Source: Elusimicrobiota bacterium
GTDB taxonomy: Bacteria > Elusimicrobiota > Elusimicrobia > FEN-1173
DNA: 64,000 nucleotides
Assembly: GCA_016788905.1 (NCBI GenBank)
Contig: JAEURZ010000002.1
Span: forward strand, 95,383-159,382
Direction of reading: 5' to 3'
The position numbers and the translations under genes are program-made. The notes beneath the pieces are model-generated. The model did no database searches. It was given only the letters and a program-made list of their open reading frames with translations, and was not told where the DNA came from. This document shows, in pieces, positions 15,314 through 38,289 of this stretch (position 1 is its first letter; each line of letters opens with the position of its first letter).

Positions 15314-16192
15314 TTAAACCCCTTTCTCGTGACCCGGGACGGCAGGGACCGTCCCTTTCGCCATAGACGGGACGCCCGCCGCGGGAGGGGGTACCCCCAA
15401 ACTTTTCTTGACCGCCGCTACCGCCGCCGTGTGAATTTGACACGCCCGGGATTCCGTCACTTTCAACGCCATTCCGATTTCCCGGAAGGTCAGTTCTTCT
15501 TGGTAATAGAGCGCGAGCACCAATCGCTCTTTTTCGGGCAAGGCGTCTAAAACCGCTTTAATCTGTTGAAGCACTTCCTGTCGTTCCATCGTATCCAAAG
15601 CCAAAGGCCCGCCATCGTTCATGGACGACGCCAAAGCCAGATCCTGGGGCGTGTCGTTGGACATGTCCACCGCGTCCAAAGAAACGGAGGAGGCATGGGA
15701 CACTTCCCAACACAGATCTCGCATGGATTCGGGAGACAGGTTCAACACCTGGCGAATTTCTTCTTGCGAGGGTTCGCGCCCCAGTTCTTCACGCAAAACG
15801 GTTTGAACACGCCGATAATTTTCAACCCGCCGCCGTGCGCCACGACCCAACGGGTCAAGACCCCGCAAATGATCGAGGACACTTCCTTGAATCCAGCGAT
15901 AGGCAAAAGTGTCAAATTTAACGTTCCGGGCCGGGTCGAATCGATCAAAAGCGCGGATCAACCCGACCGCACCCGCGCTTTCCAAATCGTCCCGATCGGC
16001 CTGGGGAACCAGGATGGCTTTCATTCGACCCACAATGTGGCGAACCAAAGGCGCGTGCATCGCTAAAATCTCTTCCCGGGCCCCGGGATCGTTATTTTGG
16101 AAATAGCGATCCCAAAGGACCTGGGGGTCCGGTGGGGTCGACGTTGGAGGGCCCAGGGGAAGGGGGCCCGATGGCTTTTTCAAGGGAATCAT
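15314..16192 (-). CDS. fliA: flagellar sigma factor FliA/sigma-28
   Basis: Sigma-70 family regions 2, 3 and 4; size 292 aa; follows flhA as in fla/che operons. Confidence 0.85.
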   Translation of the reverse strand: MIPLKKPSGPLPLGPPTSTPPDPQVLWDRYFQNNDPGAREEILAMHAPLVRHIVGRMKAILVPQADRDDLESAGAVGLIRAFDRFDPARNVKFDTFAYRWIQGSVLDHLRGLDPLGRGARRRVENYRRVQTVLREELGREPSQEEIRQVLNLSPESMRDLCWEVSHASSVSLDAVDMSNDTPQDLALASSMNDGGPLALDTMERQEVLQQIKAVLDALPEKERLVLALYYQEELTFREIGMALKVTESRACQIHTAAVAAVKKSLGVPPPAAGVPSMAKGTVPAVPGHEKGV

Positions 16193-28750: not shown

Positions 28751-29193
28751 TGGGTAGACCTCCGGAAAACGGCGGACGCTGCAAAATCCATTCGTTTCAT
28801 CTCCAAAGCTCTCATGTCCTCCCGATGGGATTTTTTTCTGATTTCCTTGAGACGTTCAAGTATTTGACGGTCCCGCACAGCGATTCGAAGCGCGCCTTCA
28901 CGAACAGACACCTCATGAGCCAAACGTCGGACAATTTCCTTAGAGGCCTGGATTCGAAATTCCATATGCTCCACGTAATCCCGCCGACATTGATCCCGGG
29001 TCAAATCAAGGGTGCCCGACCCATCCAGGACGGGAGGCACGGCCCAAACCTCTCGCTCTTTTTCAAGACGCTCTAAATCCAAGCGAGCCGCGATACATTC
29101 GGCGTGGGCCCGCGCCAGTTCCTGGGCAACTTTGTCCTCTTTTCGACGCCGAAGACGAAGCGGGGTTTCCAGTCGAAACCGAAACTTTTTCAC
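28747..29193 (-). CDS. fliJ: flagellar export chaperone/stalk FliJ
   Basis: MKKFRFRLETPLRLRRRKED start, 148 aa coiled coil; follows fliI. Confidence 0.75.
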   Translation of the reverse strand: MKKFRFRLETPLRLRRRKEDKVAQELARAHAECIAARLDLERLEKEREVWAVPPVLDGSGTLDLTRDQCRRDYVEHMEFRIQASKEIVRRLAHEVSVREGALRIAVRDRQILERLKEIRKKSHREDMRALEMKRMDFAASAVFRRSTQ

Positions 29194-30509
29194 GCGGGTT
29201 TCCGTTCCGCAAAGAGGGACATCAGTTGGCGTTGGGTTTGCTCAAACGTTGATCCCGCGGAGACCTCTTGGCGAAGAAACCCGTTGACACGGTCCAAATG
29301 ACCCACCGCGTAATCGATTTTAGCGTCACTCCCCTTCGCGTAGGCTCCCACGCGAATAAGGTCCTCCGCTTCGCGGTGCGTGGCCAGGACCTCCCGCAAT
29401 TGACCGGCGGCTTTTTGTTGTTCGGCACCCGTGACATCGGGCATAAGTCGACTGAGAGATTCCAGCACGTCCACAGCCGGATAGTGACCTTGGCTTGCCA
29501 GCCGACGGGAAAGGACCACGTGCCCATCCAATAACGATCGGAGCGCATCGGCCACGGGTTCGTCCATATCATCGGCCTCAACCAAAACCGTGTAGAACCC
29601 CGTGATACTCCCGGTTTCAAAAAGGCCCGCCCGTTCCAATAGGCGGGGAAGAAATGCGAACACAGAGGGGGTGTACCCTTTGGTTGTTGGCGGTTCGCCC
29701 AACGCCAACCCCAATTCACGGCCGGCCATGGCCAGTCGCGTGACCGAATCCATCATGAGCAAAACGTCTTTCCCTTCCGCGGCAAAATGTTCCGCCGCCG
29801 CCGTGGCCCCCAGAGCGGCGTGAAGTCGCGCCATGGGCGTTTGGTCCGAAGTGGCCACCACCACGACCGATCGAGCCAACCCCACATCTCCCAAATCTTT
29901 TTCAACAAAATCGCGAACTTCCCGGCCCCGTTCGCCCACCAACGAAATCACGTTGACATCCGCTTTGGTGGATCGAGCGATCATCCCCAAAAGTGAACTT
30001 TTTCCAACCCCTCCCCCCGCGAACAAACCAATACGTTGCCCCCGCCCGCAGGTCAACACCCCATCCAGCGCGCGAACTCCCGTGACCAACGGCGTTTGGA
30101 TGCGCCGACGGCGCATAGGTTCGGGAGGTGTCGCCCGCAAGGGGCGTCGTTCGGTGAGGCGGAGGGGCCCCTGGTCATCGAGAGGCATGCCCCGATGATC
30201 CACCACACGACCCAATAAGGCGTCCCCCACCGGCATCGAGACAGAACCGATCCCGTTCATCCAAAGGCTTCCGGGCCCTAACCCATCCACTTCTGTCAAC
30301 GGAGCGAACAAAATCGTCTCATCTCGAAACCCCACTGTTTCCGCCCAAAAAAAACGATGCCCCCGTCGTTCCCAGACCCGACAAATTTCTCCCAAAGACA
30401 CCGCGGGCCCCACCCCTTCCAGTATTCCCCCCGAGACGCGGGTGAGCCGTCCCACGTGGCGCGCGAGGGGCACCCGTTCGACCACATCGTCATACTTGGC
30501 AAAATTCAT
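29190..30509 (-). CDS. fliI: flagellum-specific ATPase FliI
   Basis: Walker A GGVGKS, Walker B, F1/T3SS ATPase core; start M24 of track ORF giving ATGA overlap with fliH. Confidence 0.95.
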   Translation of the reverse strand: MNFAKYDDVVERVPLARHVGRLTRVSGGILEGVGPAVSLGEICRVWERRGHRFFWAETVGFRDETILFAPLTEVDGLGPGSLWMNGIGSVSMPVGDALLGRVVDHRGMPLDDQGPLRLTERRPLRATPPEPMRRRRIQTPLVTGVRALDGVLTCGRGQRIGLFAGGGVGKSSLLGMIARSTKADVNVISLVGERGREVRDFVEKDLGDVGLARSVVVVATSDQTPMARLHAALGATAAAEHFAAEGKDVLLMMDSVTRLAMAGRELGLALGEPPTTKGYTPSVFAFLPRLLERAGLFETGSITGFYTVLVEADDMDEPVADALRSLLDGHVVLSRRLASQGHYPAVDVLESLSRLMPDVTGAEQQKAAGQLREVLATHREAEDLIRVGAYAKGSDAKIDYAVGHLDRVNGFLRQEVSAGSTFEQTQRQLMSLFAERKPA

Positions 30510-31075
30510 CCTTCCTCCGCTAACCGGTGAAACGTTCGTTCCAGCTCTTCCAACCGCGTGGAAACCCGGGCGTCCCATTGTTCGCGCTCCCCTTCGATCA
30601 CCACATCTCCCGGGGCCAGGGAAGAATCCCCTTGAACACGAACGGTTCCCCCCGCACTCTCAGTGGAAACACGGACGGCGTTGACATCATCATGGTGGAC
30701 ACGAATCGTCCGGGGGCCATCGTCCCCTAAGACCGAGAGTCCTTCCCGCACCCACTGGAGAACCCCTTCACGATTGATCGCCAACTCCTGACGACACACC
30801 CGGGTGGCAATGGAAAGAATAAGGCGAGCGATCTCGGGCTCACTGCGGGCAAAAAATCGGTCCAATTCGGCTTGATGGAGCGCGGCCAGTTTCTCTTTTT
30901 CAACCGCCAAAGCGGCGGCCGTCTCCTCGGCCAACAGCGCTCGGATTTCCGCTGTCAATCTTTCTCTCTCCACACGCAATTCTTCCGATCGCTTTTCATC
31001 CCGAGGAAGTCCCTTCGGCTCATAGCGTACCGTCCCCTCGGACATCCTCGATCGCTTTAGAATTTTCGGGGACAT
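30506..31075 (-). CDS. fliH: flagellar assembly protein FliH
   Basis: Coiled-coil N-term and FliH C-terminal domain; position fliG-fliH-fliI. Confidence 0.7.
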   Translation of the reverse strand: MSPKILKRSRMSEGTVRYEPKGLPRDEKRSEELRVERERLTAEIRALLAEETAAALAVEKEKLAALHQAELDRFFARSEPEIARLILSIATRVCRQELAINREGVLQWVREGLSVLGDDGPRTIRVHHDDVNAVRVSTESAGGTVRVQGDSSLAPGDVVIEGEREQWDARVSTRLEELERTFHRLAEEG

Positions 31076-32166: not shown

Positions 32167-33723
32167 TCATGCCGAAGCCCTCCCGGCGAATTTCTTTTGC
32201 ATCACCCGGGCCACCCCCGCGGGATCCTTGCGGGCCGCGTCCAGAAGTGCCGCTTGAGCCTGAGATGAATTTAGGGTAGGCAATTCTTTGGGAGAGGGGA
32301 CCCCTCCTTCGGCCCCTCCCGTTGACGCGGGAGGGGGGGGAGTTGCCGCGGCCAAAACCGGTGCTGCAAGAAGTGCGGTATCGTTGGTGTTGGGTGGCGC
32401 GTTATTTGTTGAAGCCCCCGCCGCCTTGAGAAACTTCATAAAGAGAATCAGCACCATGACAATCGCCAGGGCCGAACCGCCGCGTCCGATGGCCAGCATA
32501 AGGGTTTGTCGGGTCCTTTCCTTTTTCAGAACCTCTTCCTGCGCGGCCGCTTCCTCAACCATTTTGTCTCGCTGGGCGGTATCAAACGCAACATTTTTGA
32601 TTTCAAATTGGTCTTCTCGATCCTCACTAAACCCCACGGTTTGTTTCACCAAGAGACCGATGGCGTTCATTTCTTCTTCGGAACGCGCCACGTAGGTTCG
32701 GGCACCGGGGGTGGCGGGATCTTCCTTATTCGTTCCATCAATGACGACCGAGACGTAAAGGCGCCGAATGGCCCCGGGGCTGGCCACAATCTCCTTCACC
32801 GAACGGCCCACTTCATAATTTTTAACGAACGAGGGACCCGTTCGAGGCACGCTGGTTTGTTGCTCACTTCGCAATGGCGTGTTCGGGTCATAGGTCTCTG
32901 TTTTTTCGCGAACAATCCGATCGTCCATTTCAACGCGCGTTCGCACAATGGCTTTCCCGGGCCCCAGAAAACCGTCCAACAGGCTCGTGGTCTTTTGTTC
33001 CAAATACCGTTCCGCGTCTCGTTGGAGGTCCAGCAGTTCGTTGCCATGACTGTAAACCCCATCCGAGGATCGTCCCCCAGCCAACAATCGTCCATGGGAA
33101 TCCAAGATAGAAACGTTTTCTGGTTTAAGATCTTTCACGCCACCCGCCACCAAATGGACAATCCCACTCAATTGCCGCTGGTCGATGGAGGCCCCCGCTT
33201 TCAAGGTCAAGACCACCGAAGCGCGGGCCCCGTCCTGGCTATCGAGAAACGGAGATTCTTCCGGAAACACCAGGTGGACCCGAGCGGCATGGACGTTTTC
33301 GAGGGCTCCAATGGTTCGAGCCAATTCACCCTGAATCGCACGCTGGTAACCCACTTTTTGGGAAAAATCGCTCATCCCGAGGGGGGATTTTTCAAGAATT
33401 TCCAACCCCTCCCCTTCTCCCTTGGGAAGACCTTCTTGGGAAAGTTTTAATCGAAGCTCATCCACCATCCGGGAAGGCACATTCACCGTTCGGCCTCCGT
33501 TCGTCAGACGATAATCCACCCCGTCGTTCCTCAATTTTTCCACCACCTGGGCGGCATCGATGGGGCTGAGGCGGGCGTAGAGCGGTGTCTGGTCCAGTCC
33601 CCGCATGGGGAGGGACAAGGCGTAGACGGCGCCAGAGACCGCCGCCGCAAAGATCAACACCATGGCTTTGCGGCCGACGGGCAAGGAGAAAAAAAGGTCT
33701 TTCAGTCGAATCAAGGATTCCAC
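32167..33723 (-). CDS. fliF: flagellar MS-ring protein FliF
   Basis: 518 aa, N-terminal TM, YscJ/FliF domains, C-terminal TM. Confidence 0.9.
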   Translation of the reverse strand: MESLIRLKDLFFSLPVGRKAMVLIFAAAVSGAVYALSLPMRGLDQTPLYARLSPIDAAQVVEKLRNDGVDYRLTNGGRTVNVPSRMVDELRLKLSQEGLPKGEGEGLEILEKSPLGMSDFSQKVGYQRAIQGELARTIGALENVHAARVHLVFPEESPFLDSQDGARASVVLTLKAGASIDQRQLSGIVHLVAGGVKDLKPENVSILDSHGRLLAGGRSSDGVYSHGNELLDLQRDAERYLEQKTTSLLDGFLGPGKAIVRTRVEMDDRIVREKTETYDPNTPLRSEQQTSVPRTGPSFVKNYEVGRSVKEIVASPGAIRRLYVSVVIDGTNKEDPATPGARTYVARSEEEMNAIGLLVKQTVGFSEDREDQFEIKNVAFDTAQRDKMVEEAAAQEEVLKKERTRQTLMLAIGRGGSALAIVMVLILFMKFLKAAGASTNNAPPNTNDTALLAAPVLAAATPPPPASTGGAEGGVPSPKELPTLNSSQAQAALLDAARKDPAGVARVMQKKFAGRASA

Positions 33724-33803: not shown

Positions 33804-34115
33804 TTACAACGGCATGCGCATAATTTCTTGGTACGCCTCCAGGGCCCGGTTACGCAATTGAACCGTCCACTGGAGAGCCAAATTCGCCTCCTCTAATTGA
33901 ATCATGACTTCATGGGAACTGACCGCTTTTCCAGAAACCAAATCGTTGACAGCCGTGTTGGCGTTCACCATGGTGTTGTCCGCCCGCTCAATGGCTTGGG
34001 TCAAAACCTCTCCGAAATTTTTATGGGGCCCGGCTCCACCCGCCGCACCAAACCCACCCCCACCGCTTAAGGGACCGGTGGTCCCGACACTCCCCAATCC
34101 CCCGAGCACGGCCAT
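33804..34115 (-). CDS. fliE: flagellar hook-basal body protein FliE
   Basis: 103 aa, Gly-rich N-term, C-terminal AIERADNTMVNANTAVNDLVSG..VMIQLEEANLALQ; ATG 34115 (track ORF 33804..34646 is an extended upstream reading frame). Confidence 0.8.
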   Translation of the reverse strand: MAVLGGLGSVGTTGPLSGGGGFGAAGGAGPHKNFGEVLTQAIERADNTMVNANTAVNDLVSGKAVSSHEVMIQLEEANLALQWTVQLRNRALEAYQEIMRMPL

Positions 34116-34116
34116 A

Positions 34117-35142
34117 TTACGCACCCTCCTTGGAATCATCGGCCCGTGTAATAGAAGCGTGATCCAGAATAAAATCAAACACCTTGTCCTCAAGCAAAAT
34201 CCCACGAACTTCTTCTTTCTGAGAATCCAGGCGCGCGATCGTTTGCTCTCGCTGATGAACAGGCAATGGGTGAGCGGCTTTCCGCACCGCCACCACCGCT
34301 TCCTCGTTCGATACAGAAATTCCCTCCGCGTCGCCAATCGCGGCCAATATATAGGCCAATCGAACCCCCCTTTCGGCCTCCAATCGAACCGTAGGTTCAT
34401 ATTCAACGTAACGGTTTTTCCAGGCTTCCAGAGTTCCCCCTTCCGCCCGAAACTGTCCCTCAAGACGACGAAAAAGTTCCCGGGAACGTTCCCGGGCCAG
34501 GCTGGGAGGCACATCAAAAGGGTGGGCCTCAAGCAGTGCCTCCACCGCCTGACTCTCCAAGTCGCGGCGAACCAGACGTTCCGATTCGGACTCCAATATT
34601 TTTCGCACCGCTTCCCGAAATTCTGAGGGCGCCCCAATGGTTTCACCCCCGATTTCCTTTAAGGCCGCCTCCAGTGCCGCTTCTGTCACTGGGAAGGAAC
34701 GTCTTTTGAGGGAAAGACCTTTGTATCCGGTGATATCCACGTCGGGAGGGCTTTCAACTGAAAATTGAATTCGAATACTCCCCTGGCCCACATCCGCGGC
34801 CTCCACGTTTGGAGCGCTGAGCGTAATCAAGTGACAATCCTCGAGCGCGCGCCCCACGGATTCTTTCACGAGAGCCGTTAAGGCTTGTTCTCGGGCTTCG
34901 GTAGCGAACCGAAGACGGACGCGGGGGATGGGAACACTTCCGCGCCGAAATCCTGGCCATTTCACGTCCCGTTGCAATCGCTCAAGAACCTGGGCCTCTT
35001 TGACCAACAAATCTTCGAGGGGCTGTTCAATCCAGAAAAAGGACCGCCCGTTTTTGACACCCATGGGTCGAACGAAAAAACTCCGGCCGTCCCCCATCGT
35101 GCCTGGATGGTGTTTCGGGTTCGGAGTCGAAGCGGGCGTCAT
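34117..35142 (-). CDS. trigger-factor-like protein lacking the PPIase domain (N-terminal ribosome-binding domain with GFRRGSVP + TF C-terminal domain)
   Basis: GFRxGxxP TF signature motif at expected spacing; N- and C-domain blocks colinear with E. coli Tig but ~90 aa FKBP domain absent; ATGA overlap with flgC stop and 1-nt gap to fliE. Confidence 0.7.
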   Translation of the reverse strand: MTPASTPNPKHHPGTMGDGRSFFVRPMGVKNGRSFFWIEQPLEDLLVKEAQVLERLQRDVKWPGFRRGSVPIPRVRLRFATEAREQALTALVKESVGRALEDCHLITLSAPNVEAADVGQGSIRIQFSVESPPDVDITGYKGLSLKRRSFPVTEAALEAALKEIGGETIGAPSEFREAVRKILESESERLVRRDLESQAVEALLEAHPFDVPPSLARERSRELFRRLEGQFRAEGGTLEAWKNRYVEYEPTVRLEAERGVRLAYILAAIGDAEGISVSNEEAVVAVRKAAHPLPVHQREQTIARLDSQKEEVRGILLEDKVFDFILDHASITRADDSKEGA

Positions 35143-35558
35143 TTCCCAATTTCCAAGGATTTTAATAGCATGCTTTTCGTGGCCCCAAAAGCGGAGACAT
35201 TGGCTTCGTAACCACGCGTGGCGGCGGTGAGGTCCACCATTTCGCGCACGGGATCCACATTGGGAAGCCTTACGTAACCCTGTGGGTCCGCGTCGGGATG
35301 AGAAGGGTCGTAGAGGCGCGGGAACGGGGTGGGATCTGGAACCCCAGCCGTGACGTTCACTCCGGAGGGGGCCTGAGCCGCTCCAATTTCAGCGGCCCGC
35401 AAGGTTTCTTCAAAAACCACCGTCTTTCGTTGGTAAGGGCCTCCCGCGGCGGTACGCGTGGTGTTGGCATTGGCGACGTTCGACGCGGCCGTTTCCATCC
35501 ACGCCCGATGGGCGGTCATCCCCGACCCGCTAATAGTCAAACCGTCAAACGCGCCCAT
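35139..35558 (-). CDS. flgC: flagellar proximal rod protein FlgC
   Basis: MGAFDGLTISGSGMTAHRAWMETAASNVANANTTRT; C-term GYEANVSA. Confidence 0.9.
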   Translation of the reverse strand: MGAFDGLTISGSGMTAHRAWMETAASNVANANTTRTAAGGPYQRKTVVFEETLRAAEIGAAQAPSGVNVTAGVPDPTPFPRLYDPSHPDADPQGYVRLPNVDPVREMVDLTAATRGYEANVSAFGATKSMLLKSLEIGK

Positions 35559-35563
35559 TCACA

Positions 35564-35938
35564 TCACCGTCCTTCGATGGCCGTTCGGGCCATCCGATGT
35601 CGTCGCGCCACCACCTCAATGAGGGTTTGGTAGCGGACCCCCGTTTCGGATATCTCCGCCATTTCTGAATCGGGAGAGAGATCTTTGACCGCTTCTTCCG
35701 AAAACCCTTCTGAAAGAGAGGATGAACTTGTTGGTAAGTGGCGGGCGTCCGTGCGTGTCACTTCCCGCGAAAGAAATTGGTCAAAGGAATTGTTTTCTTT
35801 AGGGACCATTCTTGTCCCCACAAATCCAGGTGTTTGGATGTTCGCTAAATTATGGGCCGCGGCCTTTTGGTTTAACCAAAGGCGATTGAGCTCGCCTTTT
35901 ACCGGGGAACTCGCGATGGGCATCCAGGATTCGGTCAT
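35564..35938 (-). CDS. flgB: flagellar proximal rod protein FlgB
   Basis: LNQKAAAHNLANIQTPGF rod N-terminal motif; first gene after sigma-54 promoter. Confidence 0.8.
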   Translation of the reverse strand: MTESWMPIASSPVKGELNRLWLNQKAAAHNLANIQTPGFVGTRMVPKENNSFDQFLSREVTRTDARHLPTSSSSLSEGFSEEAVKDLSPDSEMAEISETGVRYQTLIEVVARRHRMARTAIEGR

Positions 35939-35961: not shown

Positions 35962-35977
35962 ATGCAAGAAATGTGCC
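35962..35977 (-). promoter_or_regulatory. sigma-54 promoter (cGGCAC-atttc-TTGCA on minus strand) for the flgB...fliA operon
   Basis: GG and GC elements at correct 10-nt spacing; full -12 TTGCA; 20-35 nt upstream of flgB start. Confidence 0.75.
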
Positions 35978-35979
35978 GA

Positions 35980-36285
35980 TCAAACCCGTCCATAGGCCTC
36001 GTTGGCCTGGGAGCGGCGTCGGACCGCCATTAGTTTTCCGCCGACCTCCGCCAAAGCCTGGGCGAGGAGTCGGGTGTTCGCATCGCTCTGATCTCGAACC
36101 GCGATCGCCATTTTTCGCGAAATGGACTGCCCCGGATCGGCTCCCAGAGCTTTCCACAATCGGGTCCGGAGGCGATCCAGCGGCGCAAGTTTTTCCCAAC
36201 GCCCTGAAATAATGGCGTTTTCCTCACGATGAAGGACATAGAGAAGTTTATTGGCTATTTCTTCTGGGCCCGGGTTCGTCGGCAT
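35980..36285 (-). CDS. 101-aa helical protein, possible FlgN/FliT-like flagellar chaperone
   Basis: Own perfect sigma-54 promoter, AAGGAG RBS 7 nt before ATG; weak pattern similarity to the FlgN in this window. Confidence 0.5.
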   Translation of the reverse strand: MPTNPGPEEIANKLLYVLHREENAIISGRWEKLAPLDRLRTRLWKALGADPGQSISRKMAIAVRDQSDANTRLLAQALAEVGGKLMAVRRRSQANEAYGRV

Positions 36286-36325: not shown

Positions 36326-36341
36326 TGCAATTCGCGTGCCA
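36326..36341 (-). promoter_or_regulatory. sigma-54 promoter TGGCAC-gcgaa-TTGCA (minus strand) driving the 101-aa gene
   Basis: Exact consensus match; RBS and ATG 40-55 nt downstream. Confidence 0.75.
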
Positions 36342-36408: not shown

Positions 36409-36987
36409 TTGACCAATCCCCACAGCTGGCGATCTGAATTTAATTTGGGCGTGGACATGATGGATCGGCATCACCGTGAGATGGTGAGTCTTTGTGACGC
36501 GGTGGCAGACCGAGCAAACACCCAGGGAGGAGTTCCCCAGGCGGTGAACCTTTTAGCCGAACTGGTCGGGTACGTGGGGATGCACTGCGAAGCGGAAGAG
36601 GAATTGATGCGGCGATTTTGTTACCCAGGGAGAATGGATCACCAGGATCGACACCATGAGATGGGAGTCCTTTTAAAATCCTGGGAAGATCGGGCGCGGC
36701 GACAGAAACAGGCGATCAATACCGCCTTTCTGCTTCGTCTAAGCCAATGGGTGGAAAGTCACATTCTGGGGTCGGATCGGGGCTTTTCTCGTTTTCTTTT
36801 GGATCACGTGGGGGCAGACCCTACGGCTCTGCCGCGAAGAAGGAAGGCGATTGACGTGAACGAATCCCGGTGTTCAGTGGGGAAGTCGACCGTAGCGTTT
36901 CAGTCGACTTCGTGTGACCGTTTCGCTCAAACCCAAACGAGTCGCGGCCGTTTCAATCGATTCGTTGCAGGTGTCATAGACTTTTAA
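36409..36987 (+). CDS. bacteriohemerythrin-like protein with ~40-aa C-terminal tail
   Basis: H...H, HF..EE, H...H, D..H..D cation-binding residues arranged as in hemerythrin (HHE); TTG start with strong RBS; 3' end overlaps activator gene by 114 nt convergently. Confidence 0.65.
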   Translation: MTNPHSWRSEFNLGVDMMDRHHREMVSLCDAVADRANTQGGVPQAVNLLAELVGYVGMHCEAEEELMRRFCYPGRMDHQDRHHEMGVLLKSWEDRARRQKQAINTAFLLRLSQWVESHILGSDRGFSRFLLDHVGADPTALPRRRKAIDVNESRCSVGKSTVAFQSTSCDRFAQTQTSRGRFNRFVAGVIDF

Positions 36988-38289
36988 AATATGGCGTCGC
37001 TCGACAGCGGCGAGCGTCTCCGAGGCGTCTGGATCCGGGGACGCGTGTTGTCCTTGAAAAACGGCGGGCAAGTCCGCTACGCGAACGGCGTCCCCCTCGG
37101 CGAAAACGACCGCGTGCTCAATGACGTTGTGAAGTTCTCGGATATTCCCGGGCCACGGGTAAGCGTTGAGGCACGCCAGGGCCTCCACGGAAAGAACGGT
37201 CGGTCCGCGGCCGCGAACAGCGGACTGGAGAAAAAAACTCGCCAAGAGAGGAATGTCTTCTTTTCTTTCCCGAAGCGCGGGGAGGCGGAGGGAAAACACG
37301 CCCAACCGGTAGAAAAGATCCTCACGAAATTGGGATTGACGAACCATAGATTCCAAGTCACGGTGAGTCGCGGCCACAAAACGAACATCCACCGCCTGTT
37401 CGGTGTTGCTCCCCAAGCGTCGAAAACGTTTCGTCTCCACCACACGCAACAGTTTGGCTTGGAGAGGCAGGGGCATGTCGCCGATTTCATCCAGCAAGAG
37501 GGTCCCGCCGTTTGCCATTTCCAAAAGGCCCCGTTTCATTCCGGTCGCATCCGTGAACGCCCCTTTCTCGTGCCCAAAAAGTTCGCTCTCCAACATGGTT
37601 TCGGGGAGGGCGCTGCAGTTCAGGGGAATAAACGGTCCTTCTCGACGGGTGCTGCGATTGTGGAGCGCGTGGGACACCACCTCTTTTCCTGAACCCGTTT
37701 CCCCCCGAATCAGAACGTTGCACTGGGTTGGGGCAATGCGGTTAAGAAAATCCGCGACCCGTTGAATAGACGGACTTTTACCGATCAAATCAGGAACAGA
37801 AAAGAGGTTGGACATGGGCCGGGGCCCCACGCCCCGCTGAGAAGACTTACGTTTTTGCCGGATTCTGTCGATAACTTCCATCAGAGCACGCATTTGAACA
37901 GGTTTGGGGAGAAAATCAAACGCGTCCAATTGAAGTGTTCCCAACGCCGCGCGCATGCTGCCGGCCCCCGAAATCGTGACCACATCGGTCGAGGGATGGA
38001 CTTTTTTGATTTGGCGCAACATTTCAGTTCCATCCATCCCGGGCATGAACAGGTCCAAGAGGACGATGTCGGCGGCGGCATCTTTCAGGGTTTGGAGTCC
38101 TTCCTCCGCCGAAAAAGCCAGGTTGACCGTGTGGCCCTTCTCCGTTAAAGCGCGGTCCAAGGCATAAGCCACCGATCGATCGTCATCAACGATGAGGATC
38201 GAAAATGTCATTTCCAAGGGCTGTGAGGGCGAGGCCATGGGGGATCGCGTCCTTTCAATGCGCGTTGTGTCTGTTGGTGTAAAATTCAT
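36874..38289 (-). CDS. sigma-54-dependent response regulator (NtrC/FlrC/FleR family: REC + AAA+ + HTH)
   Basis: Receiver ILIVDDD..D; Walker A GETGSGKE; GAFTGA-loop variant GAFTDA; C-terminal Fis-like HTH; true start probably M27 (38211). Confidence 0.9.
   Translation of the reverse strand: MNFTPTDTTRIERTRSPMASPSQPLEMTFSILIVDDDRSVAYALDRALTEKGHTVNLAFSAEEGLQTLKDAAADIVLLDLFMPGMDGTEMLRQIKKVHPSTDVVTISGAGSMRAALGTLQLDAFDFLPKPVQMRALMEVIDRIRQKRKSSQRGVGPRPMSNLFSVPDLIGKSPSIQRVADFLNRIAPTQCNVLIRGETGSGKEVVSHALHNRSTRREGPFIPLNCSALPETMLESELFGHEKGAFTDATGMKRGLLEMANGGTLLLDEIGDMPLPLQAKLLRVVETKRFRRLGSNTEQAVDVRFVAATHRDLESMVRQSQFREDLFYRLGVFSLRLPALRERKEDIPLLASFFLQSAVRGRGPTVLSVEALACLNAYPWPGNIRELHNVIEHAVVFAEGDAVRVADLPAVFQGQHASPDPDASETLAAVERRHILKVYDTCNESIETAATRLGLSETVTRSRLKRYGRLPH

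Follow-up and report, generated by a model that had tools for sequence, protein, structure and literature searches.

Trigger factor (TF) docks on uL23 through the signature loop of its N domain, and nascent chains are received in a cradle built from that domain and the C-terminal arms, with the C domain serving as the main substrate-binding module (PMC11559001). The remaining part of the protein, a peptidyl-prolyl isomerase (PPIase) domain, is dispensable for chaperone function in vitro as well as in vivo (PMC9287376), and a TF from which it has been deleted is reported to improve the folding of some proteins (Gupta et al. 2010, cited in PMC4626277). Duplicates of TF that have been surveyed lost the N-terminal ribosome-binding domain, the homologs from Myxococcus keeping the PPIase and C domains (PMC11559001), and PceT is an operon-encoded TF paralog dedicated to a client (PMC8905343). 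The subject of this analysis is a gene, here called X, on the minus strand of a 64,000-nucleotide stretch of DNA (the window) from an Elusimicrobiota bacterium (assembly GCA_016788905.1, contig JAEURZ010000002.1, positions 95,383 to 159,382). Its product is a trigger-factor homolog that has the N and C domains and lacks the PPIase domain, and the gene is lodged between flgC and fliE in a flagellar operon. With moderate confidence, we read X as a specialised TF paralog that was captured into the rod operon, has lost its PPIase head and acts as a flagellum-dedicated holdase that probably docks on ribosomes.

The gene and the parts of its product are as follows:

34117-35142, minus strand: gene X, very probably a trigger-factor paralog, 341 amino acids (aa) with N and C domains and without a PPIase domain (open reading frame (ORF) list, Pfam, NCBIfam, AlphaFold2 (AF2), Foldseek, dN/dS)
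34651-35028, minus strand: Trigger_N, a ribosome-binding-type domain, residues 39-164 (PF05697, E 3.7e-20)
34627-34650, minus strand: the loop GGETIGAP, residues 165-172, in place of the ~100-residue FKBP/PPIase domain (alignments to E. coli TF and canonical TFs)
34165-34623, minus strand: Trigger_C chaperone domain, residues 174-326 (PF05698, E 2e-21), forming all-helical arms in the AF2 model
34930-34953, minus strand: TF signature GFRRGSVP, residues 64-71 (read from the sequence)
35086-35142, minus strand: variable, Pro-rich, disordered N-terminal extension, residues 1-19 (pLDDT<50)

The absence of the PPIase head is evident from several kinds of comparison. Against the PDB, phmmer aligns residues 32-142 of E. 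coli TF with 53-162 of X and residues 253-420 with 161-334, and the E. coli residues in between that make up the PPIase head (~150-245) are replaced in X by the 8-residue loop; in a multiple alignment with 20 canonical TFs the same region appears as one clean gap of ~115 columns. Trigger_N and Trigger_C are matched in Pfam, whereas FKBP_C (PF00254) finds no match in X even at E<=1, and the NCBIfam tig equivalog TIGR00115 matches only in two pieces, reaching 151.2 bits against a cutoff of 180.2. The AF2 model, built on an alignment of 47 sequences, is confident (pLDDT 88.4, pTM 0.77) and disordered only at residues 1-19 and 339-341; its best full-length Foldseek matches are the solved trigger factors of E. 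coli and T. maritima (2vrh/1w26/3gty, E ~1e-11), and its N domain superposes on the isolated E. coli ribosome-binding domain 1oms with a TM score of 0.82-0.84. An earlier note on this DNA, made from its letters, had described N and C blocks that run colinear to those of E. coli Tig with no PPIase domain between them, and it had named domain-model searches and structure prediction as checks; the profile, alignment and model results all bear it out. Only a conserved loop of 8 residues connects the N and C domains, so the ORF leaves no space for an FKBP domain such as a frameshift might conceal, and its frame is conserved.

Canonical Tig (TIGR00115/COG0544; E. coli 1w26, 2vrh) is one of the closest described systems, with an N domain carrying GFRxGxxP and a C arm domain that are homologous to those of X and have the same fold. 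X differs from it in lacking the FKBP domain, in falling below the TIGR00115 cutoff, in sharing 31% identity or less with the canonical TFs found, in lying within a sigma-54 flagellar rod operon rather than upstream of clpP-clpX, and in having a signature with two arginines and no lysine. The engineered E. coli TF without its PPIase domain (TF-NC or TF delta-PPIase) has the same N plus C architecture, but it is a laboratory construct of the housekeeping protein, whereas X is natural, anciently fixed and placed in a dedicated operon. Organohalide respirers have PceT/RdhT, and Myxococcus has TF homologs that lack the N domain; these are TF paralogs encoded in or near a client operon and are dedicated chaperones, as is proposed for X. 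PceT and RdhT share the N-domain-less architecture. The Myxococcus-type duplicates show the opposite pattern to X, which keeps the N domain and signature and drops the PPIase domain, and PceT binds a Tat signal peptide, whereas X sits in a type III (flagellar) export context.

The signature is the best-preserved part of the protein. Residues G64, F65, R66, R67, G68, V70 and P71 are invariant across the 18 clusters of the X family, the most conserved 15-mer of the family (residues 59-73, DVKWPGFRRGSVPIP; mean identity 0.989) contains them, and further near-invariant positions flank it on both sides. The G, R, G and P of the signature are also invariant among the canonical TFs aligned, and every member of the flagellar clade described below retains G-[FY]-R-R-G-x-x-P. 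The TF signature GFRxGxxP that had been reported for X is therefore present; its reported position at the canonical distance from the N-terminus is not, since it occupies residues 64-71 in X and 43-50 in E. coli, 21 residues farther in. The offset of ~21 residues arises because X carries a disordered, variable N-terminal extension, in which mean column identity is 0.57 (residues 1-19), compared with 0.85 for the remaining N domain, although the start M-T-P is conserved across the family. An internal start at M16 or M27, which would restore the canonical motif distance, was considered and ruled out by the conserved M1-T2-P3 and by the overlap of the start codon with flgC.

That overlap is one of two tight junctions that tie X to its neighbours, and it can be read directly in the DNA. 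The ATG start codon of X (35142-35140) and the TGA of flgC (35141-35139) share two bases to give ATGA, and one base separates the TAA of X (34119-34117) from the ATG of fliE (34115-34113). Both junctions are as the earlier note described them, and the flgB-flgC-fliE neighbourhood that it named is confirmed by Pfam and NCBIfam matches, which extend to FliF:

35564-35938, minus strand: flgB (weak FlgB/rod matches in Pfam/NCBIfam; position kept in all related loci)
35139-35558, minus strand: flgC, its TGA overlapping the X ATG (ATGA 35139-35142) (TIGR01395, 152 bits, above cutoff)
33804-34115, minus strand: fliE, its ATG 1 nt past the X stop (PF02049 and TIGR00205, above cutoff)
32167-33723, minus strand: fliF (Pfam; called genes in L001)

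In a large protein database the X family comprises 18 clusters at 90% identity, all 334-341 aa long and 61-100% identical to X, all with Trigger_N and Trigger_C only, and, where named, from Elusimicrobia metagenome-assembled genomes (MAGs). The open frame of 334-341 aa is seen in both short-read and long-read assemblies, and purifying selection on X is shown by comparison of orthologs (dN/dS 0.07-0.10), whose rate of divergence is about that of FlgB and FliE and somewhat faster than that of FlgC and FliF. The next-best matches after the family are ordinary TFs, at most 31% identical to X, and public annotation of the family itself reads either 'hypothetical protein' or, generically, 'FKBP-type PPIase (trigger factor)'. 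A profile search of 1.84 billion representatives added the distant PPIase-less members P0056 (GYRRGSVP), P0057 (GFRRGALP) and the fragment P0062, and also P0058, a 434-aa protein whose middle domain is kept. In a scan of one genome per GTDB species the family occurs in three species only, all of them Elusimicrobia MAGs, which we presume to come from activated sludge, an origin that is not stated in the records and that we read from the isolate names, two in the style of Danish plants and one labelled EBPR.

The order flgB-flgC-X-fliE-fliF is found in every locus fetched, that is, in the window species, P0018, P0017, the three GTDB species, P0056 and P0058, so profiling of the flgC-X-fliE neighbourhood in relatives, which had been suggested as a check, returned the arrangement throughout. 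The ATGA overlap with flgC is kept in the window-equivalent locus and in L008, L009, L010, L005 and L013; the P0056 loci have no such overlap and instead show a 10-nt flgC-X spacer with a GGGAGG Shine-Dalgarno sequence. At all loci compared the X stop and the fliE start are either 1 nt apart (TAAnATG) or overlapping. One database protein (P0019, 323 aa, from a Logan contig) has FliE attached to a garbled stretch from the C-terminal part of X; it is almost certainly a frameshifted read-through that stems from a poor assembly and not a real fusion.

Transcription of the operon from a sigma-54 promoter, another claim of the earlier note, is supported by a conserved predicted -24/-12 element together with the adjacent gene for a sigma-54 activator:

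35963-35978, minus strand: sigma-54-type -24/-12 element CGGCAC-N5-TTGCA, 24 nt upstream of flgB (pattern scan)
35980-36285, minus strand: 101-aa ORF, first gene of the cluster (sub-cutoff matches to PF05400, E 1.2e-4, and to PF05130, E 3.6e-4; position conserved)
36326-36341, minus strand: perfect match to the sigma-54 consensus, TGGCACGCGAATTGCA (TGGCAC-N5-TTGCA), upstream of the 101-aa ORF (pattern scan; also in L008 and L009)
36874-38289, minus strand: response-regulator sigma-54 activator of the NtrC/FlrC/FlgR type, upstream on the same strand (Response_reg, Sigma54_activat, AAA_lid_14 and a helix-turn-helix domain)

Of the independent loci, 7/7 have an element of the form [TC]GGCA[CT]-N5-TTGC at a distance of 22-32 nt upstream of flgB, while the same degenerate pattern has only 4 matches in the whole 64-kb window, and the activator gene is conserved in related loci. 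Sigma-54 dependence of the operon, as predicted from these elements, is well supported at the level of sequence.

Whether X is an additional TF or the only one its host possesses bears directly on what it could do. No second tig was found in the 64-kb window (phmmer against six-frame ORFs), and among the matches listed for a TF profile run against JGI metagenome contigs there were only unrelated TFs at 34% identity or less. The closest canonical TFs, P0059, P0204, P0205, P0212 and P0065, are all encoded upstream of clpP, with clpX next in several, and come from other samples or genomes; amino-acid composition (the R/K ratio) did not single out the correct canonical TF. The informative case is P0480, a 477-aa canonical TF with an FKBP_C match and the gene order tig-clpP-clpX, 99.8% identical to P0204. 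JGI metagenome 3300056626 has it on a contig of 226,661 bp, and run SRR26424594 also has a contig that carries it. The X-family member P0017 is present in that metagenome too, where its contig is 369,680 bp long, and in that run. Between non-homologous regions, the tetranucleotide correlation of this tig locus (L099) with X loci is 0.960 for L005, from the same metagenome, 0.969 for L010 and 0.963 for L009, values that fall within the 0.955-0.976 obtained when pieces of the window are compared with the rest of it, whereas 32 unrelated tig loci reach 0.77 at most. On these grounds, which amount to evidence of binning grade, it is highly probable that the organism of the P0017 group has both X and a canonical tig, and because the tig-clpP-clpX contig co-occurs with a family member and matches it in tetranucleotides at the within-genome level, X is very probably a paralog and not its genome's only tig. 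The canonical tig that had been sought elsewhere in the genome can accordingly be pointed to in a metagenome and a sequencing run that each also contain a family member, while for the window's own genome its presence is inferred from the related species.

Two further observations were made on these loci. In L098 and L099 (JGI 3300056599 and 3300056626) clpP, clpX and their neighbours are split in a way typical of uncorrected long-read frameshifts, and gene lengths there are unreliable. One group of canonical Elusimicrobia TFs (P0059, P0060, P0204, P0205, P0207, P0212, P0213 and P0348; for example L015, 4001-5434) has, ahead of the ribosome-binding domain, a Lys-rich N-terminal extension of 25-50 residues that begins MFGW/MFDW...KK, of which we know of no description.

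The history of the family can be approached through a neighbour-joining tree of 315 shared N and C columns. The flagellar-operon TFs, including the three-domain P0058, form one long-branched clade with 99% bootstrap support, which the tree joins to the canonical Elusimicrobia TFs with 84% support; horizontal acquisition of X from another phylum was considered and rejected in view of that grouping. P0058, encoded between flgC and fliE (ENA ERZ27282971, locus L013, 1925-3229; 434 aa, middle domain kept), branches deepest in the clade, the internal order of which is weakly supported. Its middle domain has no FKBP match at E<=10, and yet it is colinear with the PPIase domain and is modelled by AF2 with an FKBP-like fold (pLDDT 90) at a TM score of 0.61 to both the E. 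coli TF PPIase domain 1l1p and FKBP13, a prediction that leans toward the FKBP fold in that the AF2 alignment contained real PPIase domains. The conserved PPIase-motif 'GF' is 'AV' in P0058, the Phe of this motif being, in E. coli, F198, whose mutation abolishes isomerase activity. The middle domain of P0058 thus looks like a degenerate PPIase, as modelled, and an evolutionary intermediate before deletion. In the simplest history an elusimicrobial tig would have been duplicated, one copy would have been inserted between flgC and fliE, and the PPIase domain of the inserted copy would have decayed and then been deleted. Because the deep-branching P0058 retains a degenerate FKBP-like domain, capture into the operon probably preceded loss of the domain, although the branching order on which this depends is weakly supported.

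Loss of the PPIase head is not confined to this clade. Natural TFs with Trigger_N and Trigger_C and without FKBP are represented by P0070, P0114, P0152, P0174 and P0191 (318-349 aa), which resemble X in architecture but fall outside the flagellar clade in the tree and have the canonical PGFRxGKxP motif; a fuller list of such proteins, of 291-349 aa, is P0070, P0114, P0122, P0152, P0163, P0174, P0179, P0189, P0191 and P0193. The P0070 gene (locus L105, 5001-6035) lies directly upstream of clpP, in the housekeeping position. Since the tree gives these PPIase-less TFs no relationship to the flagellar clade, the head must have been lost repeatedly and independently. The novelty that the earlier note had attached to X needs to be apportioned accordingly: in the literature searched we found no TF homolog described from a flagellar operon or from the interval between flgC and fliE, but a PPIase-less TF is in itself not unique. 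What is new is the flagellar embedding and a TF duplicate that keeps its N domain, PPIase-less TFs as such already existing as housekeeping tig.

How might such a protein work? A single sigma-54-dependent polycistronic mRNA would encode X together with the proximal rod proteins, and translational coupling to flgC and fliE would see X produced in step with FlgC and FliE. It would then probably dock at the ribosomal exit through its invariant G-F-R-R-G-x-V-P loop, with its C-terminal arms forming the TF substrate cradle, and would encounter its clients on, or close to, the ribosomes that translate its own operon. There it would act as an ATP-independent holdase for rod and basal-body proteins that are kept unfolded or unassembled before type III export, the clients being FlgB, FlgC, FliE and perhaps other early export substrates. 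We infer the holdase activity, the docking and the identity of the clients from sequence, and we favour a flagellum-dedicated holdase because X keeps the parts needed for ribosome-docked holdase action and is made in step with FlgC and FliE. A connection between TF and flagella has been seen in B. pseudomallei, in which loss of tig lowers flagellar proteins and motility (PMC13192269). The closest functional counterparts would be FlgN, FliS, FliT and FliJ, operon-encoded cytoplasmic helpers that keep substrates export-competent, though the likeness to X is one of functional analogy only. They are small helical proteins for late (filament-type) substrates; Pfam finds no match in X to PF05130, PF02561, PF05400 or PF02050, and its Foldseek neighbours are TFs only. 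A stricter version, in which X acts in cis, docking on neighbouring ribosomes of the same polysome, capturing nascent FlgB, FlgC, FliE and other rod/hook-type subunits and handing them over to the type III export gate, is conceivable but rather unlikely.

Several considerations weigh against a flagellum-dedicated, ribosome-docking holdase. To our knowledge rod proteins have no cytoplasmic chaperone in model systems, which leaves the proposal without a direct precedent. The hosts of X are uncultured, and ribosome binding is deduced from a motif that itself deviates from the usual GFRxGKxP, with an Arg at position 4 that occurs in 0/20 aligned canonical TFs and without the Lys of position 6. Counter-selection has been argued to act on TF duplicates that retain ribosome binding, with only one copy carrying the motif in 367/390 multi-TF genomes (PMC11559001), although low, operon-limited expression could equally well explain how such a duplicate is tolerated. 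The case that X and a canonical tig coexist is built from co-occurrence and composition, not from a closed genome, and concerns a sister species (the P0017 group) rather than the window species; a closely related Elusimicrobium without X in the same sample could still be the owner of the P0480 tig. Finally, among the named Elusimicrobia TFs of the best 120 hits listed, none bears an accession from the X-bearing MAGs (MBK857..., MBK887..., MBL802...), in a search of a 5.8-billion-protein set with the closest canonical TF and an Elusimicrobia TF profile for which the accessions of 20 clusters were followed, and in which unnamed representatives can hide named members.

Some of these points would also fit an X that serves as flagellar export chaperone or pilot without binding ribosomes at all, its N-domain loop docking instead on the FlhA C-ring or the FliH/FliI/FliJ ATPase complex and its arms holding rod/hook-type substrates post-translationally. 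The clade-invariant Arg at position 4 and the missing Lys at position 6 depart from the canonical pattern, invariance over the whole of 59-73, beyond the conservation of canonical TFs, could reflect a new and specific partner, FliH, FliI and FliJ are encoded just downstream in the operon, and the dosage constraint said to make ribosome-binding duplicates deleterious (PMC11559001) would not be at issue. However, none of the signature's defining residues (G, F/Y, R, G and P) has been lost, the N fold superposes on that of the E. coli domain, X has no similarity to FlgN, FliS, FliT or FliJ, and weak expression, as from a flagellar operon, would in its own right ease the dosage constraint, so we regard docking on the export apparatus as a serious but clearly less probable explanation. 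It is less probable still that X is the organism's only trigger factor, a housekeeping tig that shed its PPIase domain and happened to relocate to the flagellar cluster. In other lineages the tig beside clpP can indeed be a PPIase-less TF (P0070), a conserved ribosome signature is what would be expected of a housekeeping TF, and neither the window nor the best 120 hits listed supplied a canonical TF of the same MAGs. Yet a canonical tig-clpP-clpX contig is present in the same metagenome and run with a composition match of within-genome quality, the flagellar clade stands apart from the canonical Elusimicrobia TFs on its long, 99%-supported branch, X falls short of the TIGR00115 equivalog cutoff, and coupling between low-copy rod genes under a sigma-54 promoter would presumably suit poorly a chaperone that is needed in excess over ribosomes. 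The idea that X is explained by decay or by an error of assembly or annotation, whether as a frameshifted tig or as a pseudogene spacer that serves translational coupling, could draw on the frameshifted X-FliE chimera P0019 and on the frameshifts carried by long-read contigs of the clade (the split clpX of L098/L099). It has next to no probability: the same 334-341-aa frame recurs in at least 18 independent clusters from short- and long-read assemblies, and the low dN/dS, the confident AF2 model and the conserved 8-residue loop, which leaves no space for a hidden domain, effectively refute it.

The wider cluster also yielded observations in its own right. After fliF come fliG, fliH, fliI, fliJ, an MgtE_N-like gene, fliK, flgE, fliL, fliM/N, fliP, fliR, flhB, flhA and a sigma-28-like factor (Pfam; L001 gene calls), and motA and motB lie divergently on the other side of the cluster. 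The sigma-28/FliA-like gene (15314-16192, minus strand; Sigma70 r2, r3 and r4) shares 4 nt with the end of flhA, and neither flhF nor flhG lies between them, such that the cluster encodes both a sigma-54 activator and a sigma-28-type factor. As mechanically listed, the FliH and FliI ORFs (30506-31075 and 29190-30578, minus strand) overlap by 73 nt; in the identical locus L001 later starts are called, giving FliH of 179 aa and FliI of 439 aa with an overlap of 4 nt, and the choice of start codon here needs care. The 101-aa ORF at the head of the cluster, with its weak FliT/FlgN likeness, could be a second, unrecognised chaperone of the system. A hemerythrin-domain gene (36409-36987, plus strand) is convergent with the activator gene (36874-38289, minus strand) with a 3' overlap of ~114 nt, an arrangement that recurs in L001-L005 and L007 and may indicate an input from O2, NO or iron to flagellar regulation. 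The sole other perfect TGGCAC-N5-TTGCA in the window, at 1519-1534 on the plus strand, lies just upstream of an ORF that begins at 1545 and may be a sigma-54 promoter. Rfam and tRNA scans of the 64-kb window returned nothing bearing on X.

Overall, TF is regarded as a single, general ribosome-associated chaperone, the rare duplicates of which are said to survive only by shedding the N domain (PMC11559001), and the X clade represents the opposite outcome, a duplicate that keeps an invariant signature, drops the PPIase domain and is coupled into a rod operon. The clade is narrow (three GTDB species representatives) and consists of uncultured Elusimicrobia from activated sludge and similar samples, for which function is deduced throughout. 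Within these limits it provides a natural experiment on the purpose of the PPIase domain, with a sister-lineage relative in which that domain is degenerate and, independently, housekeeping TFs that have none. Were the cis-acting version true, it would reveal a co-translational targeting route for flagellar export and a natural exception to the rule that TF duplicates must lose ribosome binding. If X binds ribosomes, it would be a co-translational chaperone dedicated to a single pathway, and it would suggest that early flagellar export substrates, which have no known chaperone, can need one.

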